Below, in pieces: positions 5,659-58,559 of a DNA stretch of 64,000 nt. The notes under the pieces are model-generated. The model saw only the letters and a list, made by a program, of their open reading frames with translations, ran no database searches and had not been told where the DNA came from. How positions within the stretch are numbered: the stretch's first letter is position 1; every line of letters begins with the position of its first letter. Source of the stretch: Patescibacteria group bacterium (lineage in GTDB: Bacteria; Patescibacteriota; Patescibacteriia; SG8-24); NCBI GenBank assembly GCA_041667185.1, contig JBAYFM010000004.1, positions 9,097-73,096 of the forward strand, given 5' to 3'. A program made the translations under genes and the position numbers.

Positions 5659-6384
5659 TCAGCGCGGAACATAATGGATGAGAAAGCGCATCCGGCCTGG
5701 TTCGAGGACGATCGAATTCAGTCCGCCGAGACCGGACATGGCCGAAGTCAGAGCCTCCCCGATCACCCGATCCAGCACGGAAGCGAAAAGTCCGGACAAA
5801 CCGTCGGGAATATCGAGAGCGCCGAGGCGGAGACCGGTGACCTTGATCTTGAGCTGGCCATTCTGGACCACGGGTTCGATATCGGCTCGAACGGTCGCCT
5901 GCCGATCAGGACGGTCGATCAAACCATAAAACTCGAGATGTCCGGGATCGACAGCAATCTGGGTGCCGCTCAAAGCAACCGGCAACTGGGCGCCGGCCGC
6001 AGCCAAGGATCCGCGGATAATGGTCGTGAGCTCGGCTTCGCTGAAACTGATCTCCAGCGACTGCAGCAGGGCGTCGTATTTGGACTTAAGCGCCGCGGTT
6101 TTGGCGATCTGCTCCCCGGTCGAGCCGACGAGCGGCAGGACCTGGCGCGCAGGCTGCGATGGTTCGTACAACCAGCCCGTCAGGACCGGGACCGTGACCA
6201 GACCGGTCTTCGCGACCAGGGCGGCCGAAAGCAAGAGCGGCACGGCAACAGCCAAAAGTTCCAGCACCAAGCAGCCGGCGCAACCCAAAAGCTTCTTGCG
6301 GCGCTGTTCGTGATGGATCTCCGTGAGGATCTCTTTTTTGAGCGCCTCGCGATCCGACTGATCTTCGTTCTCGATCCTGGTCAT
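5659..6384 (-). CDS. Single-pass membrane protein, hypothetical
   Basis: Charged N-terminus, one TM (LVLELLAVAVPLLLSAALVA) and a ~180-aa extracytoplasmic domain. Confidence 0.45.
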   Translation of the reverse strand: MTRIENEDQSDREALKKEILTEIHHEQRRKKLLGCAGCLVLELLAVAVPLLLSAALVAKTGLVTVPVLTGWLYEPSQPARQVLPLVGSTGEQIAKTAALKSKYDALLQSLEISFSEAELTTIIRGSLAAAGAQLPVALSGTQIAVDPGHLEFYGLIDRPDRQATVRADIEPVVQNGQLKIKVTGLRLGALDIPDGLSGLFASVLDRVIGEALTSAMSGLGGLNSIVLEPGRMRFLIHYVPR

Positions 6385-8592: not shown

Positions 8593-8650
8593 GCAGCCTT
8601 ATCTTACAGGGCTGATAGGATAATTTAGCTTGGATGGAGGGGGAAAGCAA

Positions 8651-8775
8651 GGGAGCAGGAGATGCGGAGTCAGGGAGAGACGGAGATGCGGAGATACGAA
8701 GTGGCGGAGTCAGGGAGTTTGAGAATGCTGGATTCCCGCCTACGCGGGAATGACAAAAAGAGAGTGCGGGAGTGG
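8651..8775. repeat. Intergenic repeat locus C (GGAGTCAGGGAG / GAGATGCGGAG units) with hairpin attcccgcctacgcgggaat
   Basis: gggagcaggagatgcggagtcagggagagacggagatgcggag...ggcggagtcagggagtttgag...agagtgcgggagtgg. Confidence 0.55.
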
Positions 8776-8783
8776 TCGGACCA

Positions 8784-9065
8784 TCAGTCGAGATGTCTAT
8801 AACCTAAACGCGAAAAAGTCACGTCCAGTTGTTTTTTCAAAGCAGCCCGACCATTACCGCCTTTCAGATATCGTTCCCGCCGTGCGGCCTCAATTCTAGT
8901 CAAATAAGCCTCGTAATAGATCAACTTCAGCGGCCGCCGGTCTCTGGTCGATCTCACCATGCCCGTACGATGCTGACACCAACGTCTGCGCAGGTCGTCC
9001 GTCAGACCCACATAAAGCTGCCGATCCTTCACGCTAAATAATACGTATACGTAGACGTAATGCAT
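8784..9065 (-). CDS. Small GIY-YIG (URI-domain, YhbQ-like) nuclease
   Basis: YVYVLFSVKDRQLYVGLTDDLRRRWCQHRTG...KLIYYEAY...RERYLKGGNG: GIY-YIG motifs with the conserved Arg and Glu. Confidence 0.8.
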   Translation of the reverse strand: MHYVYVYVLFSVKDRQLYVGLTDDLRRRWCQHRTGMVRSTRDRRPLKLIYYEAYLTRIEAARRERYLKGGNGRAALKKQLDVTFSRLGYRHLD

Positions 9066-9291
9066 ACCGCGTTTCCTACCATAAGGCCAAAATCAGGTAA
9101 AGCGCCAAGCTGAGCTCGGAAAATACAAAAAACCAGCCGGTGTTACCCGGCTGATTCCCACCACTGAACTCGGCTCGAGCGTTGCAGTGGGCCAGCTCAG
9201 CTGGCCGCACCTCGCTCTGATCGCTCGGTTGTTTCATCAGAGAATGCGAAGCTGAGCTTCGCCTTCATCTTTTGAAACCGAGCTGAGCTCG

Positions 9292-9420
9292 GTGGTGGAG
9301 ATGGGGAGATTTGAATCCCTCGCTCCGACTCGGGCCCCGGGGCGCTGCGCACCGGTCCGCCCGCTAGCGGGCGGACCTCTCGCGCCCGAGTTCAAATCTC
9401 CCCCATAAAACAAAAGCGGA
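9292..9420 (-). repeat. Partial duplicate of the tmRNA 3' end (T-loop, acceptor 3' strand and CCACCA, 23 nt identical) fused to a structured element with the 24-nt perfect palindrome GGTCCGCCCGCTAGCGGGCGGACC
   Basis: Reverse strand reads GGGGGAGAUUUGAACUCGGGCGCGAGAGGUCCGCCCGCUAGCGGGCGGACC...GAGGGAUUCAAAUCUCCCCAUCUCCACCA. A 13-bp outer inverted repeat GGGGAGAUUUGAA/UUCAAAUCUCCCC encloses the palindrome. The 3' 23 nt are identical to the genuine tmRNA end at 9445-9467. Confidence 0.6.
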
Positions 9421-9444
9421 CGACTAGCGTCGCCCACTTTTGAT

Positions 9445-9836
9445 TGGTGGAGATGGGGAGATTTGAACTCCCGTCTGGCGAGGTATTTCCCGACACTTCT
9501 ACAAGCGTATTCCGTTTGGTATTTCGGCTCGGCGGTGAGAAACGGAATAAACCCGCCGGACCTATCCCCTGCAATGGTCGGCCTGTCCGCCGGGGCCGCG
9601 GTCAGGCTCTGTCCGATAGATGACACCGGGATCCCGCTTATCGGACGTCAGCGGGGCCGATGGGTTCGCGCGTTACGCGAGAACCGGAGCGAATGAAGGC
9701 GCGAAGGCGTTAGCCAGGGCGGTCTTCACCCGATTGACCAAGTTTGCACTTGTTCAGTATCCGTTGATTTACGAGGTAACGGACGTCCTCGGCTCGCATG
9801 CCGTGAAAAAAACTCCCATCGATGCCTGGCATCCCC
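9445..9836 (-). ncRNA. ssrA: tmRNA (ssrA), standard one-piece
   Basis: On the reverse strand the 5' end GGGGAUGCCAGGCAUCGAUGGGAG pairs with the 3' end ...GACGGGAGUUCAAAUCUCCCCAUCUCCACCA. Acceptor stem is 7 bp with G3:U, the T-arm is GGGAG/UUCAAAU/CUCCC, and CCA is encoded. The putative tag frame is GCA AAC UUG ... GUU CUC GCG UAA, giving ANLVNRVKTALANAFAPSFAPVLA*. The gene is directly downstream of smpB and is followed by a hairpin plus U-tract. Confidence 0.8.
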
Positions 9837-9909: not shown

Positions 9910-10350
9910 CTACTTCATCGCGCGGCGCACCTCCCTATCAAGCTCGCGCCTCTTGATCGTCTCCTTTTTCTCATACTGCTTCTTGCCGCGCGCCAGACCG
10001 AACTCTAATTTGATGCGCGACCCCTTAGTATAAGCAGAAAGAGGCACTAAAGTCAATCCTTTCTGCTCCATTTTTCCCATAAGTCTCAGCAATTCCCGCT
10101 TGTGGAGCAAGAGTTTGCGCGTGCGCCGGGCGTCATACCCCGGCAGCGGTCCGGCTTTGGGGAAAGGCGGGATCTGAGCATTCATGAGCCAGGCCGAGCC
10201 GCGATTCAGGGTCACGAATGATCCGGTCAGGCTCATCTTGTCGTCGCGAACGGACTTGACCTCGTGACCCAGGAGCTCCAAACCAGCCTCGAACTTCTCG
10301 AGGATCTGATAGTCATAATGCGCTTTTTTGTTCTCGGCCAATCTGGGCAT
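9910..10350 (-). CDS. smpB: SsrA-binding protein SmpB
   Basis: HYDYQILEKFEAGLELLGHEVKS...GSFVTL...AWLMNAQIPPF...RTRKLLLHKRELLRL, with a Lys/Arg-rich C-terminal tail. Confidence 0.9.
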   Translation of the reverse strand: MPRLAENKKAHYDYQILEKFEAGLELLGHEVKSVRDDKMSLTGSFVTLNRGSAWLMNAQIPPFPKAGPLPGYDARRTRKLLLHKRELLRLMGKMEQKGLTLVPLSAYTKGSRIKLEFGLARGKKQYEKKETIKRRELDREVRRAMK

Positions 10351-13648: not shown

Positions 13649-13678
13649 AAAACCGCCCTTAACGGGGCGGTTTTTTGA
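13649..13678 (+). terminator. Rho-independent terminator after rplT
   Basis: aaaaaaccgcccttaacggggcggtttttt. Confidence 0.75.
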
Positions 13679-13720
13679 GAGACGGAGTGCTGGAGAGACG
13701 GAGTGCAGGAGTCCGGGGAT
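13676..13720. repeat. Intergenic repeat locus D (GAGACGGAGTGC units)
   Basis: gagagacggagtgctggagagacggagtgcaggagtcc. Confidence 0.55.
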
Positions 13721-13745
13721 ACGTTCGCGAACGACGCATCTCCGT

Positions 13746-13889: not shown

Positions 13890-13950
13890 GAACGGGAGAG
13901 TGCCGGAGTGCTGGAATGCCGGAGGGCTTCGTCACTCCCTGACTCCGTAA
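13890..13950. repeat. Intergenic repeat locus E
   Basis: gggagagtgccggagtgctggaatgccggag...cactccctgactccgta. Confidence 0.5.
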
Positions 13951-14090
13951 CTTTATCACTCCCAATCTTGACAAACCGCCTTATTTCTGCTATAGTTAGC
14001 CGTTTCAAGAATTGTGCTTGAAACCAGGCCAAAATTTCAGTTCGTTGAAAATTCACGGAACGATCAACCCTTTCAGAAGAGGAGAACGTC

Positions 14091-15377: not shown

Positions 15378-15544
15378 GTCCAGTTCGGTCCCTCACTAGC
15401 CGCCGAGCTCTCAGCTCGGCGGTTTTTCTTATCCGAGCGCGCGGAACCGGCTCTGCCAGGCCGGGGTCTTGATGAAAAAACGTAAATAGTCTACGATACT
15501 TTTGCTAAAAGCAGCGGTAGCACATCCGACAACTGATCGCGCGT

Positions 15545-15611
15545 GGGTCCGTGGTGTAGCCCGGTTAACACGGGCCGCAGTACTGCGGCCAGACCGAGGG
15601 TTCGAATCCGC
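15545..15611 (+). pseudogene. Pseudo-tRNA copy 1, derived from tRNA-Asp. The anticodon arm is replaced by the 18-nt perfect palindrome GGCCGCAGTACTGCGGCC, and the copy is truncated in the T-arm by the GIY-YIG ORF.
   Basis: GGGTCCGTGGTGTAGCCCGGTTAACACG is identical to the 5' half of tRNA-Asp at 15970. The palindrome then occupies 15573-15590, followed by AGACCGAGGGTTCGAATCC. Preceded by the same 25-nt leader (acatccgacaactgatcgcgcgtgg) as the real tRNA-Asp. Confidence 0.65.
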
Positions 15612-15869
15612 ATGATAACCACCCTTTACGTCATCAAAAATACAAAAGGCAACTACTATATCGGAGTCACTGGAGATATTCACCGGAGACTGATCGAACA
15701 CAATTCGGGAACAAGTCTTGCTACCAGAGGAAGGGGTCCGTGGAAACTGGTGTATACGGAAACTTTCCTTTCGCCGCAAGAGGCGAAAAAACGCGAGTAT
15801 CAGATCAAGCAAAAGAAACGGAAATCATACATTGATTGGTTGATAAATGCGCGTGGGTCCGTGGTGTAG
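15612..15869 (+). CDS. Small GIY-YIG (URI-domain, YhbQ-like) nuclease, second copy
   Basis: MITTLYVIKNTKGNYYIGVTGDIHRRLIEHNSG...WKLVYTETF...EAKKREYQIKQ. The ATG starts 2 nt after the T-loop of pseudo-tRNA copy 1, and the stop TAG lies inside the D-arm of pseudo-tRNA copy 2. Confidence 0.75.
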   Translation: MITTLYVIKNTKGNYYIGVTGDIHRRLIEHNSGTSLATRGRGPWKLVYTETFLSPQEAKKREYQIKQKKRKSYIDWLINARGSVV

Positions 15870-15914
15870 CCCGGTTAACACGGGCCGCAGTACTGCGGCC
15901 AGACCGAGGGTTCG
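15856..15914 (+). pseudogene. Pseudo-tRNA copy 2 (5' acceptor, D-arm, palindromic arm, partial T-arm GAGGGTTCGATGCC)
   Basis: Same as copy 1 up to the T-loop; no acceptor 3' strand. Confidence 0.6.
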
Positions 15915-15969
15915 ATGCCAATCATCCTGATCAAAACAGAGGTCGTACATCCGACAACTGATCGCGCGT

Positions 15970-16047
15970 GGGTCCGTGGTGTAGCCCGGTTAACACGTCT
16001 CCCTGTCACGGAGAAGACCGAGGGTTCGAATCCCTTCGGACCCGCCA
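15970..16047 (+). tRNA. tRNA-Asp (anticodon GUC)
   Basis: Acceptor GGGTCCG/CGGACCC. D-arm GTGT-AGCCCGGTTA-ACAC. Anticodon arm TCTCC-CTGTCAC-GGAGA. Variable region AGACC. T-arm GAGGG-TTCGAAT-CCCTT. Discriminator G and encoded CCA. Confidence 0.85.
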
Positions 16048-16048
16048 T

Positions 16049-16081
16049 AAAAGAACTGTTCATGTCGAACGGTTCTTTTAT
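16049..16081. terminator. Hairpin flanked by A- and T-runs (bidirectional terminator-like)
   Basis: aaaagaactgttcatgtcgaacggttctttt. Confidence 0.5.
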
Positions 16082-16091
16082 TTTGCCGCTC

Positions 16092-16170
16092 CTGCCCATG
16101 GTGTAGCCCGGTTAACACGGGCCGCAGTACTGCGGCCAGACCGAGGATTCGAATCCCTTCGGACCCGCCA
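16092..16170 (+). pseudogene. Pseudo-tRNA copy 3: degenerate 5' acceptor strand (CTGCCCA), D-arm, palindromic GGCCGCAGTACTGCGGCC arm, T-arm, acceptor 3' strand CGGACCC and GCCA
   Basis: Direct reading; the acceptor stem cannot form. Confidence 0.6.
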
Positions 16171-18174: not shown

Positions 18175-18199
18175 AAACGCCCGAAGAAGGGCGTTTTTT
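18175..18199 (+). terminator. Rho-independent terminator
   Basis: aacgcccgaagaagggcgtttttt. Confidence 0.65.
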
Positions 18200-18215
18200 C
18201 GCATCTCGCCAGGAT

Positions 18216-18270
18216 GCCCGGTTAACACGGGCCGCAGTACTGCGGCCAGACCGAGGGTTCGAATCTCCCG
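18216..18270 (+). pseudogene. Pseudo-tRNA fragment copy 4 (D-loop, palindromic GGCCGCAGTACTGCGGCC arm, T-arm, GCCA; no acceptor stem)
   Basis: gcccggttaacacgggccgcagtactgcggccagaccgagggttcgaatctcccgcca. Confidence 0.55.
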
Positions 18271-18536
18271 CCATGACAGGCGTGGATCCCGCTCACAATA
18301 TCGTAATAACAGAAAGCGGGACCTTCGGACCCACGCACATCATTGACGCGACCCCTGATCTTTGCTTATCTTTAGCAAGCGAAACGGTTCTTTAAAAATT
18401 CATTCATGAGACAGCGCCTCGGGCATAAAGGCCCCCACTCCCGCCGACAGCCGGGTTGTGTCCGGCGCGCTGCCTCATGAAAGAGGAAGCCGCCGGCCGG
18501 AGCGACTCCGGCAGATCCAGAACCCAGGAGATGACG

Positions 18537-25924: not shown

Positions 25925-26030
25925 GTTGCGCGAGAGAGACGGAGTCAGGGAGTTTAAGAGTGCGGGAGTTCAGGAGTGCTGGAGTGCTGAAGGATGCCGG
26001 AACTTCCCCGCTCCTCAACTCCCCCACTTC
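25925..26030. repeat. Intergenic repeat locus F between ftsA and ftsZ
   Basis: gagagacggagtcagggagtttaagagtgcgggagttcaggagtgctggagtgctgaagg... Confidence 0.55.
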
Positions 26031-26080
26031 CAACTAAAAAACCGCTCCATAGAGCGGCTCTTCTAGTTACTAGTTGCTAA

Positions 26081-28277: not shown

Positions 28278-29453
28278 CTACTCAGCGACTTTCAGGCTAT
28301 TCACCACCATCTTGAAAGTGACCGCGTAATCAAGTTTATTCTGGCCTCCCAGATTATAACTCACGATGAATATGCGCTTGCCCGCAGCCACGAAGGCCGT
28401 CATCTTGTCCGGGCTCAGGATCTCCTCGTGACCGCCGAGAGTCTTAAGCAATTGAACCTCGGAACCCACGACGCCTGGCGATTGTTCCAGATACCAATCC
28501 AAGAGCGTCTTGTCCGTATCATTGGTTTCGACCAACACCTGGATGAACTCACCCTTGGGCGACGTGAAGTAGGTTTCCTTGCCATCTTCGCCTTTCTCGC
28601 TCACGACCCAGGAGGCCGGACGGAAGATCTCGTAACCCTGGACCGCGCTCTTGTAGACAGCGATCCCCGGATTATTCACGAGCAGGGCCGGGCGCGGCCG
28701 GGCCGGATCGAAAAGGTTGAGTACCTCGTTCAGATCAACGAAACTGTCGCCGTCGGAATCAGGATTGCTCATATCCGAGCCGTAGATGCCGGTCTCTTCC
28801 GCGTCGGTCACGCCGTCAAAATCAGAATCCGCTCCCGGAGTCGGTTCGGGAGGTTCGCAATCAGCGGCGCAGGTCTCGAGAGTCTCAGGTTCCTCGCATT
28901 TGTTGTCACCGCAGACCGGACCGGGCGGCACGCAATCAGCAGAACATGTTTCCACGGTCTCCGGCGCCTCGCATTTGTTGTCACCGCAGACCGGACCCGG
29001 GGACGGGCAGTCGGCCGGACAAACGGCGAAATTCTCGCCGCTTTCGCATCGGTTGTCGCCGCAGACCGGACCGGCCGGAATATTGGCGTTGGTATTGATC
29101 GCGGGCTGGACCGGACCCTTGGCCTTCTGTCCGGGCTGGTAGACCAGGAAATAATACGCAGCGCTGCCGCCGAGAGCTAGCAACAGGAAAATGACGATCA
29201 GGATGATCGGCAACGCGCTGCGTTTCTTGGGCTGCGGCGGTTTGGACGCTGGAGGATTAGCCGCTGCTGCCGGAGCCGGCACTGCCGGTTTCTTCGGCGG
29301 CTCGACCACTTTCTTCTTCAGAGCCGCGCCATAAAACTCATCCGGAATGACGTGGATGACGGTCTCGGAAGAGTTGGCGCCAGGCAAAGCCGCGGTGGGC
29401 GTGCCTGGCGGTTTCTCAAAACCCGGATTCGGAGCGATGTTCGGGGTGTCCAT
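28278..29453 (-). CDS. Membrane-anchored surface protein with three PVCGDNxCE...C.ADC repeats, TSP3 Ca-binding repeats and a C-terminal beta domain
   Basis: TM IILIVIFLLLALGG. Threefold PGPVCGDNKCE(x)PET(x)ETC(x)ADC repeat. DSDFDGVTDAEE and DSDGDSFVDLNE motifs. Confidence 0.6.
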   Translation of the reverse strand: MDTPNIAPNPGFEKPPGTPTAALPGANSSETVIHVIPDEFYGAALKKKVVEPPKKPAVPAPAAAANPPASKPPQPKKRSALPIILIVIFLLLALGGSAAYYFLVYQPGQKAKGPVQPAINTNANIPAGPVCGDNRCESGENFAVCPADCPSPGPVCGDNKCEAPETVETCSADCVPPGPVCGDNKCEEPETLETCAADCEPPEPTPGADSDFDGVTDAEETGIYGSDMSNPDSDGDSFVDLNEVLNLFDPARPRPALLVNNPGIAVYKSAVQGYEIFRPASWVVSEKGEDGKETYFTSPKGEFIQVLVETNDTDKTLLDWYLEQSPGVVGSEVQLLKTLGGHEEILSPDKMTAFVAAGKRIFIVSYNLGGQNKLDYAVTFKMVVNSLKVAE

Positions 29454-30683: not shown

Positions 30684-33600
30684 TTAAGGCGTGCTGGTCT
30701 GATAAACATTCTGCGGGGTCAACGTCGGCACTCCAGAGGTGGGTACGGTCATGTCGAAGATGTACCAGTTTCCCTTGGTATTACTCGTACTCACAGGAGC
30801 CGTGATCGAAGTCAGCTGATACGCGCCGTTGTGCCAGCTGATATACATCCGGGAATTGACTTGGGAGAAATAATCGTAGCCATTACCGCTGTAGTCATTC
30901 ACCCAGAATTTCCAGGTCCGCAGCACCGACCGATCATCATTCCACCGATATAACATTGTCTGCGGTGCGTAATCGAAAGTACCACAGGTGTTCCTGCCAT
31001 CTGGATGGTAGCAGGACAGGAAAGCGTTCGGATTAGTATTAGCCACGTCTTGATTGCCCGGACTGCCGTACGACACTGTCGCGCTGCCTGGATCAGGAAC
31101 CCAAAGATACGAATCAAGGAATCCGTTCAGGTCGCCATCCCAGATATATGCGGCCATGGCGTACCCGTAGGAAACCCGGGGCATCAGATAGAATTGCGGC
31201 GCCGACCAACTGTTCGCCGAACCGCTCGGAACGAACATCGAAGCTGCGTGATAACCGTTGACGTTGCGCTCCACGACCGCTCCAGAAAGGCCGGAAACGA
31301 CCAGATTATTGGCGGGCTTGAACGGCAGCACCTTGAGCCGGACGCGGCAGTGCGCCGGCGTGCCAGTGGTCTTGACCACGTCGGCCAGATTATAATTGCC
31401 GCTGGCATCGGTCTGGATCGCGATATTATTCGGCGAACGATCGACGCCGCAGACGCCGCCGAGTTTCTTGCCGTTGGCCCAGATGAAGATCCCTTCGGTC
31501 ACCTTGTCGTCGAGTCCGATCCAGCAATTGGCGCCGTTGCAGGCCGTCCGGACCTGTTCGTTCTTCGTCAGGTCGGCGATGGACGCGAGTCCGCCGTGAT
31601 TGGAGCAGGCCGACTTGGCGGAATCATAGTTCAAACCAGTGCCCGTGACCGTGAGGTCGTTGCAGACACCGCGGTCGGCCAATTGAGTGGACGAACAAGC
31701 CGCGTCGTTCCACGTGCCGTCAGGGTACATCTGCGCGCAATTCTCATTGCCATCAGGGGAGCCGGTCCAGTTATCCGGCTGCTGCGTCGCCCAGTTATTG
31801 AAGTTCAGGGTCGTATCGGCATTGCAGTCGGTGTCGCTGCCGCAAGTCGTGACGCGATCGTAGTTGCAGACCGCGGCCTGAGCCTCGACAGTCGCGCCGA
31901 CGATCGGAGTATTCACGAACATGGCGTCGCGCAGGTTTCCAGAAACAGCCATGCCTTCGCCAGGCCTGGTCCTGACCGTCCAGTTGTCATCGATCAGACT
32001 GTTGCAGTCATCGTCCTTGCCATTACATAGCTCTTTCGGATAGAAGACCAGGTCCATCGAGTTGGCTGGATTGCAATCGGCGACCTTGGCCAGCGTTGTC
32101 TTGGCGATATCCGGTCCGCCCCAGCAACCGGTGGACGGCGGCCAGGCCTGAATTTCGATCTCGCTGCCGGCGCAGGTCGTGATATTGAAAGAGATGTCGT
32201 AACTGCCATCGGCAGCCGTCATGACCTCCTTCAGATACGTAAGATTGCCGCCGTCCTTGCAATAGAGCTTGATCGGCGCATTGCCGACAACGCCCCTGCC
32301 GCCTTCAACCCTGAACACGCCCCTGATCTTCATCAGATTCTCATCAACCACGCCGTTGCAATTGTTGTCGCGGCCGTCGCAGACATCCTCGACACCCTCG
32401 GTCACCGAGAACGAACCGGTCTCGCCGGTGTCGCCGCTCTTCGTGTAGGTCAGGCTGAAATTCGGCCGCGAATCCCATTGGAGAGGTTCGCAATCCTTGG
32501 AGTTCGGCACGCCGTCGTTGTCGGCATCCGGATCGCAGGAATCCTTCAAGACGATCGGGTAGGACTGCGGCGGAGCGACGGGGTAGGGATTCGGGAACGG
32601 CCAGGAATTCGGCAGCTCCAACAAGTAGGCCTGCGGATTGAACAGGTTCCAGACGCCCTGCGGCGGCCGCACGTCACTATCTGTGTTGACCGTCGAGGAA
32701 TCGTTGCAGGCTTTGGATGACCGGTCGACGCAGGTCCGTTTGCAGGTCTTGGCGTCGCAGCTAGCCTGGCCGGTCTGGCGTCCGAAGACCTGGTCCTGCG
32801 GCCTGGTGCTGACGCAGATCCAGTTATTGATCCCGGTCTCGCCTTCGCACTCTTCCGGTCCGGGCGGATCATGCTCGAAATTCTCCAGGATGTTGTTGCC
32901 GCAGAAGCCGCCGGTGACGGTGCCGAGCTTGCAGGCCGACGTGCAGTAAGTGCAGTCCTGGCCATAGGCCGGACGGCAGCGCTGGCCGTTCAAAGCTCCC
33001 CCGTCGCACTGTTCGCCGCGCGCGGCGCTCACGAAACCGTCGCCGCAGACAGCGTTCTTGCAGTTGACGCAACCGTCGGCGGCATCGCTGTTGCCATCAT
33101 CACATTGTTCGCCGGTGTTCTTCACGCCATCACCGCAGCTGCCGGCTTCGGTGCAGCTCCAGTCGCCCCAGCGGCAGGCCAGCTGATCATCCTCCGTACC
33201 CGGCGCGTTGGCGTAGCAGGTGCGCCGCCAGCGCTTGTCATGATCGTTGGCATCGCAAAACTTGACGCAGGACCAATCCTGCCCGTTCGCGCCGAGGCCG
33301 CGGCAGTCGGCGTTGGTCGAACAGCCGGGCTGCGAAGACAGCTGCGTGCAGGTCGTCTGGTCCGCACCGGGCGGACAGCACAATTGCGGGTAATTCTGGA
33401 CTCCGCCGTCGCAGACCTCGCCAGAACCATTGATCTTGCTGTCGCCGCAGCGCGGACCCAGCTCTTTGCAATCCCAGGAACACGATGGCGCACCATTGAA
33501 ATTATATTGGCCGTTATCAGCGCCCAAATCACAGGCTTCGGAAGCCTGTTTCGCGCCGTCGCCGCAGCGCGGACCCAGACCGTTACAAGTCGAGTTGCAC

Positions 33601-36600
33601 TGGCCGTAAGTCCCGTTGAGCGGACCGTCATCGCAGAACTCGCCGGACTGTTTGATGCCGTCGCCGCAGGAGCCGACCGCGCACGCCCCCGGAGCCTGCC
33701 ATCTGCAATCCAAGCCGCAAGCTTTCCGCTGGACTCCCGGTCGCCCGCCGGATACGCAATCAATGATGGCCGGAGCCTGCCCTGGTTCGCACTCCTCCGG
33801 ATTGGCGCCGCCGATCTGCACCACGCCATCGCCGCAATAGCCCTGGGAGCCGATCTCCGTCATGGCTTGGCAGCGCGGGCCAAGATCGTAGTTCACGCCG
33901 CTCATGAGGAGCGCGCCGCCGCCCTGGGGCTGGCAGCCGGCTTCAGGAGACCAGGCGCACTCCGACTTGGCGACGCATTCGTTCTGCGTGGTGTTGTCGG
34001 GATCGCTGCCGTCGCGCACCTCGAAACAGGTCGAGCCAGCCCAGTACATCTTCGCGTTGGCGGCGCACTTGCCGCCGAACCAATTACAGAAACCGTCCTG
34101 CGCCAGACAGGTGTTCTGTTCGGCATAGGCCGTGCACAGATAATCCTGCCCGGTCTCGAAATCGGCGTAGAGACGGAAATCCTGGCCGCCGACGCTCTGG
34201 AACTCATAGACGTGCGACTCGGCCGGACAGCGATAGACCTTCTCCGCGGCATTCCAGCAAGTGGCGGGATCGAACTTGCGCTTGTCGGCGCAAACGCCGT
34301 TCTCGTAGACGCAGATCTCGGCGTGCTGATCGCAGGCGGCCTTGTTCGGATACTGCGAACAGTAACCGGAACACTGCATGAGCTTGTTGACCGGATCGGC
34401 CACGAGACCGAAACCGAGTTCGCTGGCGAGGACCGACGTCCACGAGCCCCAGCTGCTGATCGTGCGGCCGGGCAGGAAAGTCCCGGACTCGAGCTTGGGA
34501 TAGCCATCGCTCTTTTTGGCGACCAGCGCGTTCCGGAGCTGGACCAGATCGGTCCAGCGCTTCAAGTCGCGGATCAATTTATCCTTGTGAGCGCTGCAAT
34601 AGAGGCCGGCGCGCAGCGGGTCGAAGCCGCCGTTCTTGACGCGGCAATCGACGTCGGCCGAACACGGGATCGGCTTGCCATTGTCGAGCGCCTGCATCCC
34701 CTCCTGGGCGGCATCCACGCAGTAGCCTTTGTTACTGACGTTCAGATTGAAATTTATCTTGTTCAGGATCTGGTCGAAGATGGCCTGAGTCTCCGCCGCC
34801 GCCCCGTCGCTGTAAGACAGGATGTTGACGTTGGTGTACAACCGGCGCTGCTGCTCGGCGGCGATGTCAACCTTGGCCACTGCCAGGCTATAGACCGTCC
34901 GCCCCTCGCGCAAAGCCGGATAGCCATCCACCGTGGTCGCTGTCGGATTGCCGCTGAAGCCCTGTTTCTGGTACCAATCGCTGATGCTCAAATGATCCAG
35001 ATTGGACATGATGCGCAGACCGATGGCGTTCTTTTCCCAGGCTGTGGGCTTATCCGGGAAATTCGGGTCCAGCGGCCCCAAAGCGCGGTCGAACGTGAAC
35101 AGATACTCCCGCTGGATATCGCGGCCAGGCTGCAACGAGGCGTACTTGGACTCGTTCAGGGCCGGTAAGAAACCGACGGCCGGGGTGCGCGGAGCGCTGC
35201 TCGCGGCGCCAGCTTGAGCCAGGCGCCGGCTGGCGCTGCTCAGGGCCGAAGACGTCCGCGAAAGGACTTTAACGCCGCTTTCGTTCAGCGCCGGCAGATC
35301 ATCACCCTCGTCACCGCCCGCGGCGCCATCCCGACAATAATAGAAAGAAAGGTTCGTCGTGGGATCATAGAACGGGAACCACACCTGTTCGTCGCCGAGA
35401 CAGGACAAGCTCGCTCCCCTGGCGGCATCCCAGGGCAAACCATGAGCCTGAACGTCGGTGCATTTCCGCCAGGACGGCCAGGGATTCCGGCACAGCATGA
35501 CCGTGACCCTGGATTCGGCGCTGAGCGTCGAAGGCAGGCCCTGATCCAAGATCTCAGCGGCCACTCGGACCGACTGATCGCCATTGGCCGGGAACTTTTC
35601 GACCGGCGTCTTCCGGACCGAGACCCGGGCGGTTTCGGTTTCCTCCGGACGCGATCTGACGCAATCGGACGCCGCGGCGCAATTCTTGCAATCCGGACTA
35701 TTATCCGCCTCGCCGATCTCGCAGAAACCGTTTCCGACCGCGGGACCGACGACCGTCGGCGCGACCACGATCGGCGAATCGTCAGGCTGAACGTCCCAGA
35801 ACCATTTGAAACGATAATCCGGAGTGCTGTTCAGACTGGCCAGATCACCGCCGCGCGCCGGCTTGGCTTCGGCGACGAAATTCTGGTCGCCATCCAGCGA
35901 ATCCTCAGGATCAGGATATACGGCCGCGTTCGTGTCCTCGGCGGTCGTGAACAGGTGCGAGACCGGAGTCAGTACCACGGAATCGATCTTGCAGACAGCG
36001 CCAGCGGTCTTGAATTCCGACGGGCTCGAATCGTAAAGCGGCACGCCGCCCGCCGTCCGCAGCACCTCGCCGGCCGGACGCAAGCCGTCGGCGCCGCGCA
36101 AAAGTATCGTGTGCGTGACATTGGGCAGATAAGAACCGGCGGACATGAAGGTCACCAGCCGCGGCTTGACGACGAGGTCGCCGGGAACACGGCAATAACC
36201 GGCATCAGCAGCTCGAACCGGCGAGACAGCGCGTTCCAAGAGGTCGAAGAGGAAAGAGATCAACCGCGCCGGAGCCTGCCACCAGGCACTCGACCGGACC
36301 TCCGGCCGGAGAGACGTTTCGCCCCAGGGCCGCAGCTGTCCGTTGACCGGCTGCCGGTCGGCGCAGGTATCGCCTTCGCCGCAATCGGCGTCCGTCGAGC
36401 ACTGCTGGCCGGGTTTCTTGACGCAATATCTGACGGGCCGGCAGGAACCGCCGCAATCAGCGTTGGCGACGCAGGCAAGTCCGTTATTGGAACAGACGCT
36501 GGGCGCCTCCGCGGGCCGCGCAGCGCAAACGACGCCGAAAGAGCAGTCAGAATTGATCTGACAGCGCTCGCCGGTATCGGCGCAATATTTGGCCTGGATA

Positions 36601-39600
36601 CAGGAACCGCCGCAGCCGGCGTCGTTCGTGCAGGTCTTGCCTGGATCATTGCTGCAGACCGAACGGCACGCTCCGTCAACGGCCGGTTCGTAAACTCCCA
36701 CGTTGTCCCGAACGGAATTGATATCGACAGCTTCGCTGAAAGCGACTTTGACGGCCGTGTTGCGGCACACGTCTCCTTGTCCGGATAATGGGTAGACGAA
36801 CTCCGGCACGGGCGCCGGCGCGCAACAGCCGTTCGCGGAGCAGCCCAGCGGCGGCGGAGCCGGATCCTCTGTAGCCATCTCGCCCAGCGACCGGCAATAG
36901 GTCTGAGGCTCGCTCTGTTCCAGACAGGAGCAGGTCAGGCTGACCGTGGCTTTGCCGACGCGCGTCGAATCGGAACCGAATTCGGTCAAGCCGGCCAGGA
37001 CGTCATCCGACGGCCGAGCCACCGGCGGACCGGAGTAGACGCCGGCGCGGATGATCTGGAAAGGATCGATCCTGCCGTCGCCGCCGACCGGACCCGGATC
37101 GCAACCGGCCGCCTCGCCAGCGCCGACCACGCCATCGCGGCAGAACGACATTTCAGAATATTGCGCGGAAGCGCCTTCAAGCAGACAGGCTGCGGAACAG
37201 CCGTCTTGATTGGCCAGATTCCCGTCGTCGCACTGTTCGCCGGCCTCCACGATCCCGTTGCGGCAGCACCCCGTGCCGGTCGCTGCGGCGCAGGCTTTCG
37301 TGCCGGCGCGCAGACAAGTCTTCGGATCGCAACCGGCGGCCAGAATCGCATCGCTGGCGCCGGCCCCGCTGGCCGTATCACAGCCGATATCTTCGCCGGC
37401 TTCGGTCCGACCGTTGCCGCAATAATTGACGCAGGACGGCATGACTCCCTCGCTATCAGGCGCGACATCCAGACAAGATGGCAGGCTGCCCTCGCGCAAA
37501 CAATTATTGCTGCAGCCGTCGCCGTTCGCGCGATTGCCATCGTCGCAAGCCTCGCCGTCGGCCAGCTGACCGTCGCCACAGGACGACTTGCCGGCCGCAG
37601 CGCCGAGCATGACGCAGCCGACGGTCGAGCCGTTGGGTTCCTGGCAGCCGGTATCGAAGACGGCGCGGACGGCGGAACAACCCGCGTCGCCGAGTTTGCA
37701 GCCCGCCGGTTCGGTCTCGATGATCGCCTCGCAATTTTCGCCGTTTTCCAACTGACCGTTGCCGCAGCACTGCGCATCATCAAGCGCCCCGCATTTGAGC
37801 GTGCCCAAAACTACGCACCGGCTGGCGTCGCACCCGCGCGTCGCCGGACTACCGACGGCCGCATCGCAAGCCGGGTCTTCCCAAGGCAGGTCAACCACGC
37901 CGTTGCCGCACTGCGGCATCTTGTTCTGAGACCCCGTATGCCGGCAATCGGAAGTGCAGCCGGCCATCATCTCCATGTTCGTATCGAGACGGACATCAGG
38001 AGCCGCCGGCGGATCAATGGATCCGGAGTTCGTGTAAAAACCATCGATGACGTTCTTGTCAGTCTTAGTCCAAAGCCAACTGTAAGCACTCGCCCGCAGC
38101 TGCTGGCCAAGATCATCGCATTCGTCAGGTTTGGCAAAAGGCACCGCCTCGAAATCGGCGCGCTGGCCGACGTATTGCAGCAGCACCGCGCTCGGCCTGA
38201 CATCGGCATGATGGACGGCGCAAGGAGTGGGGCTGGTATTGGTCTTGAACTGCCAGGTGAAATAATCGCCGTCGTTAAGCTTCGAAAGCGGCACGCCGCT
38301 CCGACTCTTGATGAAACCGCTGCCGGCCGGCCGCTCGTCTTTTTTCGGATCCCAATATTGGCTCCGCAACCGGACGAGATAATTGGTGTTGCTCGCCAGG
38401 CCGGCCGAACCGATAGCGAATTCGAAGCGCCGGCCGCTCAGCTGACCGACCGAATCCACGACCTTGTTCACGGTCACGGTCTCATGGAAATATGGCGGCT
38501 GGCAGCTGATGTTGCGGCATTTGAGGACTTCGACATTGCCCGAAAAACTGGCTTCATCCATCGCGACGTTGAATTGCGCCCAGATCGCGGCGTTGCTGCA
38601 GGCGCTGCCGCAATCGGGAGCGTGAGCCGTCACCTGCGGATCAGCGAATTTGACGCTCACTTCGGCCTGGCCGGAGGTCTGCTGGCCGCCGCCCGGCGGC
38701 GCGAACGCGGCCGCGAGACCGACCGGATCCTCGGTCTCCGCCTTCGCGCGCACGGCCTGATAACACTGATGCTTGTCGGGCTGCAGGGACAGGATGTTCT
38801 CATCGGAGCTCCAGTTGATCTGGTAGATGCCCGGAGCGCACCGGAGGCGATTGCAGCTGATGTCGACCGGGAGGGCGGCGAAGCCGGCCGGATTCGCCGG
38901 CGCCGGAGCCTGGTTCGGAGCCGCCGGCGGCAGCCATTCCGGATTATCGACCTCGTCGCGATCGATCAGATATTTGAAAGGATTGACGATGACCTCGGAA
39001 AGCACGCAAGGAGCATCGGTTGCGGCGGTCTTGAATTCCAGAACGTAGTCGCCGCCCTGGTTGAGATCGTAATCACCGTCGAGATCAACGCCGTAGATAT
39101 CCTTGATGCCGTTCTCGGAATCGCCGGACAAAGTGACCCGGTACCAGGTCTTCTTGGCCAGCAAAGCCCCGGCACCCTTGGGCGCGGCGACCAGGGACCT
39201 CGACCCCGGCGGCTGGGGCGGCAGGTTGGAATTCTCAAAGGTCACGTCGAACTGGCTGGTCACGTTGACCGCGGCAGCGCAGGCCGGAGCGATGCCATCG
39301 CCGCAGGTCTCGATCCGGTATTTCCCGGCGAAGGAATCGACCCGCATGAAATTATTGAAAGCCAGCTGGATGACCGTGCCAGTGCAGATATCCTGGGAGC
39401 CGGCGGACGGCGCCGGACTCTTGAAATCAACGGCGTATTTGGCCTGGCAGGTCTGTTCATGGCAAGCGCAGCGCAGGACCTGCGGCATCTCCGGCAGCAC
39501 TTCGGTGCTGAACCGCCAACCGTAGGCACTGGTCGGCTTGGGAGCTTCGCAGGCAGCCTTGGTCGCCCGGCAGGAACCGTTGGGGCAGCAGACCGGCTTA

Positions 39601-42338: not shown

Positions 42339-44522
42339 TTAAGGAGTGCGGGTCGGTCCCAGCTGGCAGTCGAACACTTCCTGGGGATTGCCGTCGCAGC
42401 ACGAAGTGGCGCCAGCCGTGAGCTCGCAAGCGAAGCCCTGGCTCGGAAAGAAACAGTTCTGGAACGCGTCCTTGACCTGCGCTTTGACGACCGGCTGGTA
42501 GAGCGGCAGTTTCTCGGTGACAGTGTCCGTTTCCTCGTTCCAGTTCAGATCATTCAGACGGAAGAACCGCTCGTGTCCCAGATCAGTGACGGTGTGCTCC
42601 GTCGGACCCGCGCCCTGGATCGCGTTGCCGATGATGACGGCTGGCGGATCGATCGGCCTGGCGCAGGTCGAGATGTCCATCTCGCTCGTGCAGTCGGCGG
42701 TGCCGGTCTTCAGCCAGAGTCGGGCGTCATAGAACATCGTCGTGCCGCCGCGCATGGAAGCCGACATCATCGGTTTATTCCAGGCCAGCGTGACCGGAGC
42801 ATCAACAGGCACTGACGACGGATCAGCCGGAGTGATGCCGGCGATCCGCGGCGGATCGAGATCGACCGCGCCGCCGATGCGATAATTGGCGACGGCCGTG
42901 TCGCTGTAAGCTCCGTAGTTCGACGGATCATTGCCCGGCGGAAAGACGTTCCAATTGAAAGCCTCGCGGCTGCCGGAGACTGGGCCCTCGGCCTTGCCGC
43001 TGCGATTGCCGTCGAGGGAATTACCGCTCATATCAGTGACACCATCGGTCGGATCAGCGGCTCCGGGCGGCACCGAACCGACCGTGGCCGCGCGGACCTG
43101 GAACGTGACGTTGGCGTTGGCCGGCAGGCAGAAAACGGACTCGCCGCAGGAATTCGTCACCTTGCCGCCGTCGCAGGGAGCGCTCGGAATGAACTCGACC
43201 GTGCGGTAGCGGTTGCTGATGTCCATCAAACCCTCAATCGAGGTGCAGGTGCCGCCGGTGCAGTCCTTGAGATCGATGAAATTGAAACCTCCGGATCCGG
43301 TCTTGCCGCGCGCGGTCGTCGGATCGAGCGGCTCGTTGAAATACGCGGCCACGACGCGATTCCGGGCCAGAGGATAGATGTTGAACGGACTGGTCGGTCC
43401 CGGCGAAAAATATTCGAGCTTGGGCGGCTCCAGGTCGAAGGTCGTGCTCGTCGTGAAGACCCAGAAATATCCGCCGTCGTTGCCCATGGTGTTGAAGGCC
43501 GGCTTCTGGATCGGAGCGGTTCCCGTCGGTGGCGGCACCCAAGCCTTGATCCCGGCGTCGCCGCCGCGGAGCGCCACGCGATAATCGACCGGTTCGTCAT
43601 TGCTGCCGATGCCGGCCGGCCCGAACCTGAGGACGATGGTCTGGTTATTATCGGCGTTATAAGGCTCATCGACCGCCGTGCGCGTCACGGTCGGCGCGGG
43701 GCTGACGAGCTTGGCGGCCGGATACCGCTGCTCGAAACGATCGGCGACCGAGGCCGCTGTCGGCTCGCCCAGGTCACCCACCTCGATGATCTTGATATTA
43801 TCGGTATTGAGCGTGAGGATGGTCTGCGGCGTGACAGGCGTCTCGATATGGCCTTCGCTAGCGCAGTCCGGCGCACAGACGACGTCATCAGCGACGGCAA
43901 AAGTATTGTTGTCCTTGTAATTCTTGAAAATGGTCGAAAGCACGACCGGCTTCTTGAAAGTGATCGCCACCTTGGTGTTCCGCGGCACGTTGGTCTGGCC
44001 CGCTTCCGGATAGTGGTATTCGATGCCGTAGCCGCGCTGGTTGGGGCCGCAATTGACGCGGCAGCCGCGCGAGAAAAAACTGCCGTCGCCGGAATCGCCG
44101 AGCGGACCAGTGAGCGTGTTGCCGGTCACGGCCCGGAAAATGAACGCCGTGATGGCGTAGGCCGACATGATGATCGCGAGACCGATGGTAGCGTTGATCA
44201 GGATCTTCTTGGCCTGCGTGATCTTCTCCTCGCTCCCCTGCGAGGTCATCCACAAAACGCCGGCGTACAGGATGATGAGCACCGCGGCCACGCCGAGAAA
44301 TGCGAAAAACGCTTTGATGATGTTGCCGATGGTCGTCCGGATATCGGTCGTGCCGAGGCCGATGGCGGTGGCATAATTCAAACCGAGATCGACGCCGCTC
44401 TGAGCGAACGCGACAAGCGGCAAACCGATGGCGGCCAAGATAACGCCAATGACCGCGACGGTGATCGCGGTCTTAGCTGGCGCCGCACTGGCGCCGTTCC
44501 GACGATTTATCCTTCCAAGCAT
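42339..44522 (-). CDS. 727-aa secreted protein sharing the N-terminal pilin-like module of the giant protein; beta-rich passenger
   Basis: ...AFAQSGVDLGLNYATAIGLGTTDIRTT...LIILYAGVLWMTSQGSEEKITQAKK...IGLAIIMSAYAI aligns position-by-position with the N-terminus of the 3879-aa protein. Stop is 15 nt from the giant gene's start. Confidence 0.7.
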   Translation of the reverse strand: MLGRINRRNGASAAPAKTAITVAVIGVILAAIGLPLVAFAQSGVDLGLNYATAIGLGTTDIRTTIGNIIKAFFAFLGVAAVLIILYAGVLWMTSQGSEEKITQAKKILINATIGLAIIMSAYAITAFIFRAVTGNTLTGPLGDSGDGSFFSRGCRVNCGPNQRGYGIEYHYPEAGQTNVPRNTKVAITFKKPVVLSTIFKNYKDNNTFAVADDVVCAPDCASEGHIETPVTPQTILTLNTDNIKIIEVGDLGEPTAASVADRFEQRYPAAKLVSPAPTVTRTAVDEPYNADNNQTIVLRFGPAGIGSNDEPVDYRVALRGGDAGIKAWVPPPTGTAPIQKPAFNTMGNDGGYFWVFTTSTTFDLEPPKLEYFSPGPTSPFNIYPLARNRVVAAYFNEPLDPTTARGKTGSGGFNFIDLKDCTGGTCTSIEGLMDISNRYRTVEFIPSAPCDGGKVTNSCGESVFCLPANANVTFQVRAATVGSVPPGAADPTDGVTDMSGNSLDGNRSGKAEGPVSGSREAFNWNVFPPGNDPSNYGAYSDTAVANYRIGGAVDLDPPRIAGITPADPSSVPVDAPVTLAWNKPMMSASMRGGTTMFYDARLWLKTGTADCTSEMDISTCARPIDPPAVIIGNAIQGAGPTEHTVTDLGHERFFRLNDLNWNEETDTVTEKLPLYQPVVKAQVKDAFQNCFFPSQGFACELTAGATSCCDGNPQEVFDCQLGPTRTP

Positions 44523-58306: not shown

Positions 58307-58390
58307 GCCGCGGTGGCGGAATGGCAGACGCACGCGACTCAAAATCGCGCGGGGCAACTCATGAGGGTTCGACTCCCTCCCGCGGCACCA
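58307..58390 (+). tRNA. tRNA-Leu (anticodon CAA), long variable arm
   Basis: GCCGCGGTGGCGGAATGGCAGACGCACGCGACTCAAAATCGCGCGGGGCAACTCATGAGGGTTCGACTCCCTCCCGCGGCACCA. Acceptor GCCGCGG/CCGCGGC; anticodon loop CUCAAAA; T-arm GAGGG-TTCGACT-CCCTC; encoded CCA. Confidence 0.85.
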
Positions 58391-58425: not shown

Positions 58426-58559
58426 TTAGCATCCGTGTCTACGAGCGGGAGGGAGTCGAAGGGTACGGCGAGGCTTGCCTAGTATGGCAAGCCGAGACGA
58501 CCCGGGCGGCGAAGGAGGCGGCGCACATGAGGACTTTTCCAGCGCCGCCGGGTGAGCCG

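Follow-up and report, generated by a model that had tools for sequence, protein, structure and literature searches.

A probable tRNA-linked repeat unit behind a Patescibacteria tmRNA gene, in a niche shared with GIY-YIG nuclease genes

The window analysed here, a 64,000-nt stretch of a Patescibacteria contig (JBAYFM010000004.1) to which all coordinates refer, contains a smpB-ssrA locus in which the 3' end of the transfer-messenger RNA (tmRNA) gene is repeated a short distance downstream. The repeat probably closes an RtT-like tRNA-linked repeat (TLR), a non-coding unit of approximately 150 bp that separates the tmRNA gene from the 3' flank it originally had. Such a unit would be composed of a terminator hairpin, the tRNA or tmRNA 3' end in inverted copy, a structured core of foreign sequence, and the same 3' end in direct copy; the gene for a GIY-YIG nuclease further downstream would be a separate, statistically associated resident of the same niche. 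The TLR architecture is new for this phylum and for tmRNA as a host gene, and the linkage of Slx1-like GIY-YIG genes to tRNA and tmRNA flanks, mostly on the 3' side, is previously unremarked.

Layout of the unit behind the tmRNA gene

The window has a G+C content of 60%, and its SmpB is annotated as that of a "Patescibacteria group bacterium", with Uhrbacteria and Parcubacteria as the nearest named relatives. The smpB gene (9910-10350, minus strand; PF01668, E = 1e-51) lies upstream of a one-piece tmRNA gene, ssrA (9445-9836, minus strand), which was identified by ARAGORN and by the Rfam model RF00023 (126.4 bits) and in which the CCA is encoded. The last 23 nt of ssrA, from the T-loop to the CCA, form the repeated core (D1, 9445-9467, minus strand). 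An exact match search found this 23-mer, TTCAAATCTCCCCATCTCCACCA, exactly twice in the window, at D1 and, as an exact direct copy including the CCA, at 9293-9315 on the minus strand (D2); shuffled sequences yield an expectation of 0. An initial annotation of this DNA had already reported the duplicate, and it is exact, with its end one nucleotide away from the position given there (9293 rather than 9292). The sequence of the tmRNA locus, including the 23-nt identity, was the same in three independent assemblies of the organism (ENA, JGI, and Logan). Chance and assembly artefact were rejected as sources of the copy on the basis of the shuffles and these assemblies.

The interval between D1 and D2 is 129 bp long and contains no open reading frame (ORF) of note; the whole insert amounts to approximately 150 bp. 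Right behind the tmRNA gene, a terminator scan and reading of the sequence located an intrinsic terminator (T1, 9411-9442, minus strand). The TLR unit itself begins 41 nt past the tmRNA CCA, on the same strand, with an inverted copy (I, 9388-9403, minus strand) of tmRNA positions 367-382, covering the T-stem, the T-loop, and the first acceptor base; it was found by blastn-short and folding. D1, T1, and the inverted copy together make up one long imperfect palindrome centred on T1. In the predicted fold, 9391-9403 within the inverted copy and 9303-9315 within D2 are the 5' and 3' strands, respectively, of a 13-bp outer stem that closes a branched structure of -65 kcal/mol (z = -3.7). The outer inverted repeat of 13 bp in the initial annotation corresponds to the pairing of the 16-nt inverted copy with the direct copy. 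The last 10 nt of D2 (AUCUCCACCA) are unpaired in this fold, and across units 7-10 nt (…NCCA) are free at the 3' end.

The outer stem encloses a G+C-rich core of 75 nt that is foreign to the tmRNA (X, 9316-9390, minus strand) and that was delimited by folding and by its conservation in two related lineages described below (L005 and L036). It includes a helix, CTCGGGC/GCCCGAG; a perfect 24-nt palindrome, GGTCCGCCCGCTAGCGGGCGGACC (9354-9377), which had been noticed at the outset and occurs only once in the window; a small hairpin, GGTGC-GCA-GCGCC (9341-9353); and a conserved single-stranded block, GAGTCGGAGCGAG (9319-9331, minus strand). Comparison of the core with the host tmRNA and tRNAs in both orientations yielded no significant similarity, which led us to reject a local inverted or direct duplication of these genes by template switching. 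A pseudo-tmRNA or a minimal tRNA-like fold was discarded after inspection of the sequence, since the T-arm of the copy is not kept as a local hairpin. A hidden group I intron, ribozyme, or other known RNA was likewise set aside: in E-value mode Rfam returned a weak RtT match alone, and at curated thresholds it reported only the tmRNA and three tRNAs in the window. The published introns of Patescibacteria tRNA-Asp and tRNA-Asn, located at position 35/36, are unrelated to this element.

Downstream of the unit, an array of hairpins with GCTNAGC loops (9160-9293, minus strand; individual hairpins at 9277-9293, 9246-9262, and 9190-9206) starts from the A of the CCA of D2 and is followed by a second intrinsic terminator detected in the terminator scan (T2, 9128-9159, minus strand). 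With T1 before and T2 after them, the TLR and the hairpin array are bracketed by two terminators. These three GCTNAGC hairpins are the only ones in the window and all lie behind D2, compared with 0.3 in shuffled sequences. Among the loci fetched from related genomes, similar arrays begin at the CCA of tRNA-Ile and tRNA-Val (L066) and of tRNA-Glu (L075). Since the last A of the CCA is where the arrays start, both at ordinary tRNAs and at D2, D2 and what follows it look like the original flank of the tmRNA gene, and T1, the inverted copy, the core, and the repeat consequently look like the added part. The GIY-YIG gene (gene 1, 8784-9065, minus strand; PF01541, E = 4.5e-14) starts 227 nt after the copy and encodes a stand-alone, UPF0213/Slx1-like nuclease domain of 93 aa, which the initial annotation had recognized as a GIY-YIG ORF. 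Because gene 1 and the hairpin-array flank adjoin D2, D2 would represent the original tmRNA end.

Occurrence in related genomes and comparison with E. coli repeats

To compare the locus among relatives, we collected smpB-ssrA loci by exact-protein look-ups and by scanning genome and metagenome collections with SmpB as the query; L-numbers denote smpB-ssrA or nuclease loci fetched in this way. The scans gave just 18 loci from genomes and 32 from metagenomes, so the sampling of lineages is thin. A TLR was found behind the tmRNA gene in four lineages. Besides the window, these are L005/L006, whose SmpB is 72% identical to that of the window and whose homologous unit has a 24-nt direct and a 15-nt inverted copy; L036/L038 (SmpB 63% identical), with a homologous unit that contains an internal insertion of approximately 100 nt and a truncated direct copy; and L065 (SmpB approximately 57% identical), whose unit has a different core and a 17-nt direct copy ending at the discriminator base, the CCA not being encoded. 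The direct repeats that bound the units consist of 17-24 nt of the tRNA or tmRNA 3' end, and their left edge always lies in the T-loop. In the three lineages that share the core of the window (type A: window, L005, and L036), the loop varies at one position, being TTCAAAT in the window and TTCAATT in L005 and L036, and both the direct and the inverted copies match the T-loop of their own genome each time. L005 and L036 also retain TGGTG and GGTGGA, which on reading the sequences are remnants of a full-length inverted 3' end.

Close relatives provide empty sites. In L030, the tmRNA gene stands directly before a terminator and a gene encoding MNRWLI…; L005 has an additional 152 bp, ending in the identical 24-nt repeat, before the homologous terminator and the same gene. 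Similarly, the tmRNA gene of L019 stands directly before the leader of the nuclease gene (CTCGACTCACC…), and in L065 a terminator, an inverted copy, a core, and a direct copy are placed before this shared leader. By sequence comparison, both pairs look like clean insertions. Four loci (L007, L028, L030, and L032) lack the unit and show no visible scar in spite of an SmpB 80-85% identical to that of L005, and about ten more distant loci lack it likewise; the question of presence or absence among related genomes, raised by the initial annotation, is thereby answered in favour of a unit that is present at some loci and cleanly absent from close relatives. Contigs of other close relatives (L004, L035, and L034, with SmpB 100%, 82%, and 95% identical, respectively) end at the CCA or no more than 28 nt beyond it, which is no proof but hints at strain heterogeneity at this boundary.

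Three blocks of the core, CTCGGGCGCGAGAG, CCGGTGCGCA, and GAGTCGGAGCGAG, are 100% identical in the window, L005, and L036, and the tmRNAs of these lineages are 73-78% identical; judging from this alignment, the core blocks are conserved more strongly than the tmRNA itself, and maintenance of the unit under constraint is the best supported interpretation. The palindrome is real but is not conserved as a sequence: at the same place L036 has another hairpin with a perfect stem (GGACGCGCGC/GCGCGCGTCC) and L005 a degenerate one, and we rejected the palindrome as a conserved sequence motif. Over the three sequences, 92% of the proposed pair cells are standard, compared with 31-50% when the partners are slid. 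The outer stem measures 13 bp in the window, 13 bp in L005, and 8 bp in L065.

The window contains a second TLR of the same architecture, detected by blastn-short and folding, behind tRNA-Leu (58307-58390) at 58445-58579 on the plus strand. After a terminator, it comprises an inverted 16-nt copy (58445-58460), a hairpin GGCTTGCC…GGCAAGCC (58472-58493), a second hairpin, and a direct 20-nt copy ending in CCA (58560-58579); the outer stem is again 13 bp and the z-score of the fold is -6.2. Behind it comes one more unit, whose terminal copy measures 13 nt (58678-58690). This element, absent from the initial annotation, is a closer twin of the tmRNA unit than the tRNA-Asp locus. No comparable 3'-end copies accompany the tRNA-Val gene of the window. 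The core at tRNA-Leu has a modest likeness to the tmRNA-linked core of L065 (type B; z = 3.0, with 7 of 500 shuffles scoring as high), which suggests that one type of core may sit behind different genes with its ends matched to each. The core motifs are confined to their cognate genes.

The TLRs of Escherichia coli (Egan & Landy 1978; Rudd 1999; both as summarised in PMC8144298) comprise 22 copies at ten tRNA and rRNA loci, including loci behind 5S rRNA (rrA/rrB/rrF), and are defined by their last 18-19 bp, which repeat exactly the end of the RNA encoded upstream; they have been assigned no function, apart from the binding of Hfq and CsrA by the three copies linked to 5S rRNA (PMC8144298). RtT (rttR, RF00391) is one unit of the E. 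coli tyrT repeats, the founding example of the class. In the tyrT units, the start GGGGAAGGAT pairs with ATCCTTCCCC of the terminal copy over 10 bp and leaves CACCACCA single-stranded. The Patescibacteria element follows a stable-RNA gene immediately and in the same orientation; its 3'-end identity covers 23 of 23 nt in the window and 24, 17, and 20 nt in L005, in L065, and at tRNA-Leu, respectively; and, like the RtT consensus, it has an outer stem in which a 5' segment pairs with the T-loop and T-stem portion of the 3' copy. It further shares with the E. coli repeats the encoded CCA at the end of an exact copy (18-19 nt there, 23 nt here), an outer stem of 10-13 bp, a single-stranded …CCA tail, a G+C-rich branched core, the possibility of tandem repetition (as at tRNA-Leu), and the possibility of a place between two terminators. 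It differs in its host phylum, in having tmRNA as a host gene (the sources consulted describe the E. coli repeats in tRNA and rRNA operons only), in its GIY-YIG neighbour, of which E. coli has none, and in the presence and absence documented here among relatives. Judged by these features, the element is a TLR by the descriptive definition; it is not a member of the Rfam family RF00391.

Two other classes fit less well. Miniature inverted-repeat transposable elements are expected to have terminal inverted repeats, a short target duplication of fixed length, and many dispersed copies, and the core motifs here occur at the cognate genes only; inverted ends of 13-16 bp are present, but they copy the local host gene, and the "duplication" is 17-24 nt long. 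An integrase island would show direct repeats of the 3' part around the insert, which D1 and D2 provide over 23 nt, but the 129 bp between them hold no cargo ORF of note, and no recombinase gene turned up among the 30 ORFs scanned against Pfam.

As to how the unit behaves, we infer that the duplicated 3'-end core would serve as a site of recombination through which the unit is acquired and readily lost again, recombination between D1 and D2 restoring a scarless empty site. The TLR would probably be transcribed by read-through of T1. Since its 3' sequence is that of the tmRNA, the enzymes that trim the tmRNA 3' end would process it too, and the product may be a structured RNA of approximately 110-150 nt of the kind known for E. 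coli RtT and RrB. The small Slx1/UPF0213-like nuclease genes, for their part, would colonise tRNA and tmRNA flanks, mostly on the 3' side, throughout Patescibacteria.

Several results weigh against this interpretation. The Rfam RtT model (positions 1-130) aligns end to end with 9295-9416 at 25.9 bits (E = 0.003-0.006 for the region); this is the sole RtT match in the window, but E is 0.92 at the scale of the window, and the scores of 25.9 bits here and 17.1 bits in L005 stay below the gathering score of RF00391 (45 bits). L036, L065, and the tRNA-Leu element gave no RtT match, and true E. coli units score 133-137 bits. Local alignment of the core with E. coli TLR interiors gave z ≤ 1.5 against dinucleotide shuffles, a test in which a motif match noticed by eye (ACGACCCG…GGCGAAG) was also lost, and a blastn search of the cores against 5,426 E. 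coli genomes found no match. With no significant likeness in sequence, the link to the E. coli repeats is architectural only and could be convergent. Covariation is thin, with three sequences and two compensatory pairs, and 68 of 500 shuffles performed equally well or better. T1 of the window resembles the terminator found behind D2 in L005 and behind the tmRNA gene at the empty site of L030, so that the order of events differs among lineages. The patchy distribution could equally reflect one old gain followed by repeated loss. No insertion enzyme was identified, and the interpretation does not account for an inverted copy matching each new host gene.

In E. coli the origin of TLRs has been a puzzle for almost fifty years; their architecture now appears in a distant, genome-reduced phylum, at tmRNA and tRNA-Leu genes, with clean empty-site comparisons. 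Allowing for convergence, TLRs may be a general, actively maintained feature of the ends of stable-RNA genes rather than an enterobacterial oddity. For annotation, the locus is a warning that copies of the 3' end at tmRNA genes need not mark islands.

Alternative explanations and the GIY-YIG nuclease gene

The alternative that survives best, which we still consider unlikely, is that the element is not a mobile insert but a vertically inherited small RNA or cis-regulatory trailer of the tmRNA. The inverted copy would then pair with either the T-arm of D1 or D2, and the alternative structures would modulate 3' maturation or termination of the tmRNA; patchiness would result from repeated loss by recombination between D1 and D2. 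The conservation of the blocks above the level of the tmRNA and the preserved complementarity to the T-loop of each host agree with such a role, as does the position between two terminators, which resembles that of E. coli rrB (PMC8144298). Rfam classes RtT as cis-regulatory, and in E. coli both RtT and RrA/B/F exist as processed RNAs (PMC8144298; Bosl & Kersten 1991, from a secondary citation). Against a fixed trailer, tmRNA-linked L065 and the tRNA-Leu-linked copy of the window have the type-B core in common with modest significance (z = 3), suggesting that the core moves; with respect to the ancestral terminator, the unit stands in a different place in the window than in L005; it is missing, with no visible scar, from at least four close relatives; and TLRs in tRNA operons have no known function even in E. 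coli.

A second alternative, which we regard as doubtful, makes the GIY-YIG nuclease the driver. A selfish Slx1-like cassette would cut at the boundary between T-loop and CCA, or cut branched or hairpin DNA at that place, and repair would copy the cassette and neighbouring sequence between loci, the 3'-end duplications and the TLR being by-products or substrates in cis. The properties of the protein lend this view some substance. The 93-aa protein belongs to a tight family of approximately 90 aa in the Candidate Phyla Radiation (CPR), whose members retain 55-70% identity across such distant classes as Levy-, Beckwith-, Roizman-, and Nealsonbacteria and Saccharimonadales; in the family alignment of 26 homologues, the residues Y7, Y18, G20, R28, H32, and E64 are invariant, the catalytic Tyr, Tyr, Arg, His, and Glu among them. 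Its sequence matches in the PDB are 1ZG2 and 1YWL, the UPF0213 proteins BH0048 and EF2693. The best fold matches of the AlphaFold2 model (pLDDT 95) are BH0048 and the nuclease domain of Slx1, those of I-TevI (E ~ 1) and UvrC being much weaker, so that the closest folds include a nuclease specific for branched DNA. Slx1 cleaves branched DNA (flaps, junctions, stem-loops), and the TLR and the hairpin arrays could form structures of these kinds; Slx1 differs in requiring Slx4 and in carrying a RING domain. To our knowledge, bacterial UPF0213 proteins (YhbQ, BH0048, EF2693) have neither a known function nor a reported linkage to tRNA genes, and we found no paper describing such a linkage of Slx1-like GIY-YIG genes to tRNA or tmRNA flanks.

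The distribution of the gene also speaks for the nuclease as driver. A GIY-YIG gene occupies the slot of approximately 1 kb behind the tmRNA gene at 8 of the 35 distinct loci chosen by SmpB alone (9 of 36 with L065); the remaining 170 kb held two GIY-YIG matches, hence an expectation of approximately 0.4 in the slot. The linkage suspected by the initial annotation is therefore above chance in CPR smpB-ssrA loci. Orthologues lie 150-160 nt past tRNA-Val (L066) and tRNA-Glu (L075), and in all, GIY-YIG genes flank tRNA-Val, tRNA-Glu, and tRNA-Lys and precede tRNA-Asp. The leaders of the nuclease genes vary by subfamily, each starting right behind the discriminator base or the CCA. The gene accompanies three of the four TLR-bearing tmRNA loci and 6 of the 32 without a TLR, an association that is suggestive only and, as a test, weakly significant. 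The nuclease copy of L036 is a 29-codon remnant beside the truncated D2, as expected of a decaying selfish gene, and a second cassette in L019 has …GTCTCCA, a tmRNA-like 3' fragment, before the same leader.

What makes a driving role doubtful is that the two components occur apart. L005, the tRNA-Leu element of the window, and all E. coli TLRs lack the gene, and cassettes without a duplication are found in L066, L075, L019, and L013. Within the tmRNA locus, the gene lies outside the interval between D1 and D2. The protein has no DNA-binding domain, only the catalytic domain, and no demonstrated target. It resembles free-standing GIY-YIG homing endonucleases (T4 SegB, PMC2330249; I-TevI) in the location of its gene in or next to tRNA genes, in a patchy, selfish-looking distribution, and in its decayed copies. 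It differs from them in its size of approximately 90 aa, in lacking a DNA-binding domain, and in a fold nearer to Slx1/UPF0213; the match to TIGR01453 is far below the cut-off, and the protein is not of the I-TevI/Seg type. A phage origin was rejected, with no PHROG match and a single locus in IMG/VR.

A broader version of this idea, to which we give little weight, is that TLRs are widespread, tiny mobile hairpin modules for stable-RNA 3' ends, which would rebuild their ends from the local sequence between T-loop and CCA and be moved by, or travel with, Slx1-like GIY-YIG nucleases recognising their branched or hairpin DNA. If true, it would offer a mechanism for the E. coli puzzle of 1978 and a new type of nuclease-based mobile element. 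Perhaps the more useful lead is the linkage itself: in Patescibacteria, about one tmRNA gene in four and several tRNA genes are flanked by a GIY-YIG gene for a protein of approximately 90 aa, so that a family whose function is unknown gains a definite genomic niche and a substrate that can be tested.

The initial annotation had favoured integrase-mediated insertion, which would make the locus the remnant of an island or prophage integrated in the tmRNA T-loop that has lost nearly all of its content. The duplication is real, and direct 3'-end repeats starting in the T-loop, as in integrase core sites, are the classic signature of an att site; ssrA is a frequent target of islands, for example in Dehalococcoides (PMC3146451), where the gene also stays intact and the insert is in principle excisable, and the contigs of relatives that break at or near the CCA (L004, L035, and L034) would suit a heterogeneous population. 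However, a Pfam scan of 30 ORFs, comprising most of the largest and those adjacent to all four tRNA and tmRNA genes, detected no integrase, recombinase, or transposase. The repeats are separated by a gene-free 129 bp; three lineages contain the same short structured unit with a conserved core instead of random leftovers; a long inverted copy is foreign to attL and attR; and the same architecture exists behind E. coli 5S rRNA (PMC8144298), which is no usual integrase target. Given the lack of a recombinase among the scanned ORFs, the short interval, the recurring structured unit, and the inverted copy, the reading as a recombinase-borne island fails, and we hold it to be very improbable.

A folded single-strand recombination site of the type of the integron attC or the CTX phage attP(+) hairpin, whose stem between the inverted and direct copies would rebuild a duplex target for integration of a small single-stranded circle by a host recombinase such as XerCD, would predict the exact order of target copy, short cargo, inverted arm, loop, and target copy and would fit the attC-like size of 106-135 nt (such sites being imperfect palindromes of 60-140 nt whose outer arms repeat the target crossover sequence), the long bulged hairpin, and the remnants of a full-length inverted 3' end in L005 and L036, but it is scarcely credible, as analogy is its entire basis, no recombinase, integron integrase, replication gene, or circular form is known, the TLR has no cassette ORF inside and no sign of single-strand recombination, and the cargo would be just approximately 40 nt.

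The tRNA-Asp locus and other features of the window

We return to the probable TLR unit and its surroundings with the tRNA-Asp locus (15503-16170, plus strand), where the initial annotation had seen the same combination of duplicate, palindrome, and nuclease gene. The correspondence is only loose, and the arrangement is a different construct: the repeats are near-complete copies of a pseudo-tRNA-Asp, and the real tRNA comes after the nuclease gene. All parts are on the plus strand. A pseudo-tRNA-Asp (15545-15609), in which a palindrome (15573-15590) replaces the anticodon arm, is followed by GIY-YIG gene 2 (15612-15869; PF01541, E = 2.8e-15), whose ATG stands 2 nt past the T-loop, by a second pseudo-copy (15855-15915), by the real tRNA-Asp (15970-16047), and by a 3' pseudo-copy (16099-16170). 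The two pseudo-tRNA-Asp parts that flank gene 2 are 5' parts cut off in the T-loop, and the copy behind the real tRNA is a 3' one. The 18-nt palindrome, GGCCGCAGTACTGCGGCC, takes the place of the anticodon arm in four pseudo-tRNA-Asp copies. The alignment of the two GIY-YIG proteins of the window, as proposed in the initial annotation, gave an identity of 40%.

The order of a truncated pseudo-tRNA with a G+C hairpin, the nuclease gene, and the real tRNA is kept in L078 and L079/L080, and the hairpin stays intact through compensatory change between genomes (GGCC…GGCC versus CCCC…GGGG). The construct was located at 15503-16170 and 18196-18335 in the window, at 2430-2912 in L078, and at 2438-2824 in L079. 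Its 5' pseudo-copy brings along some upstream flank, the GIY-YIG ORF begins 0-4 nt past the T-loop, and the T-stem GAGGG occupies the place expected of a ribosome-binding site. A fifth tRNA-Asp copy at 18216-18265 contains an insertion of approximately 56 nt at this same position in the T-loop.

Further observations concern the nuclease cassettes. On the Saccharibacteria contig L019, the second GIY-YIG cassette (5750-6120) has the same structured leader of approximately 125 nt as the tmRNA-linked one and is preceded by …TAGTCTCCA, which resembles a carried-along tmRNA 3' fragment. Right behind the stop codon of GIY-YIG gene 1, at approximately 8735-8760, there is a hairpin, TTCCCGCGTAGGCGGGAA, of the ATTCCC-N8-GGGAAT type, and a similar ATTCCC-type hairpin lies just upstream of the pseudo-tRNA-Asp/GIY-YIG unit of L080 (10-35).

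Other modules were seen in the flanks of stable-RNA genes. GCTNAGC arrays of 2-4 hairpins with variable stems (L066, 1532-1629 and 2344-2434; L075, 2405-2451; L076, 2242-2280) represent a third kind of tRNA-linked module and occur with or without a downstream GIY-YIG gene. A nested-hairpin terminator module, CCCC(C/A)GTCGCTCGAG-N5-CTCGAGCTATG(G/T)GGG, is found behind the CCA twice after tRNA-Leu (58580-58760) and also behind the tmRNA CCA of another species (L028, 1705-1750); given its occurrence at both tRNA-Leu and tmRNA, 3'-flank modules seem to be common to different stable-RNA genes.

Intergenic regions of the window contain phased repeats of an 8-nt unit, (GGAGNNNN)n, often together with the inverted (NNNNCTCC)n, which results in long hairpins. 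Such runs occur at 536-621, 2760-2852, 8632-8721, 13674-13735, 13891-13975, and 25935-26034, as well as between smpB and the tmRNA gene in L029/L030, and one run sits just downstream of GIY-YIG gene 1. Elsewhere in the window, a giant ORF of 3879 aa extends over 30684-42323 (minus strand), and an ORF at 42339-44522 has a type IV secretion pilin-like domain. A 75-nt sequence is repeated three times at 28842-29066, and a large ORF at 60533-63979 (minus strand) contains about ten tandem repeats of 170-180 nt (62.0-64.0 kb).

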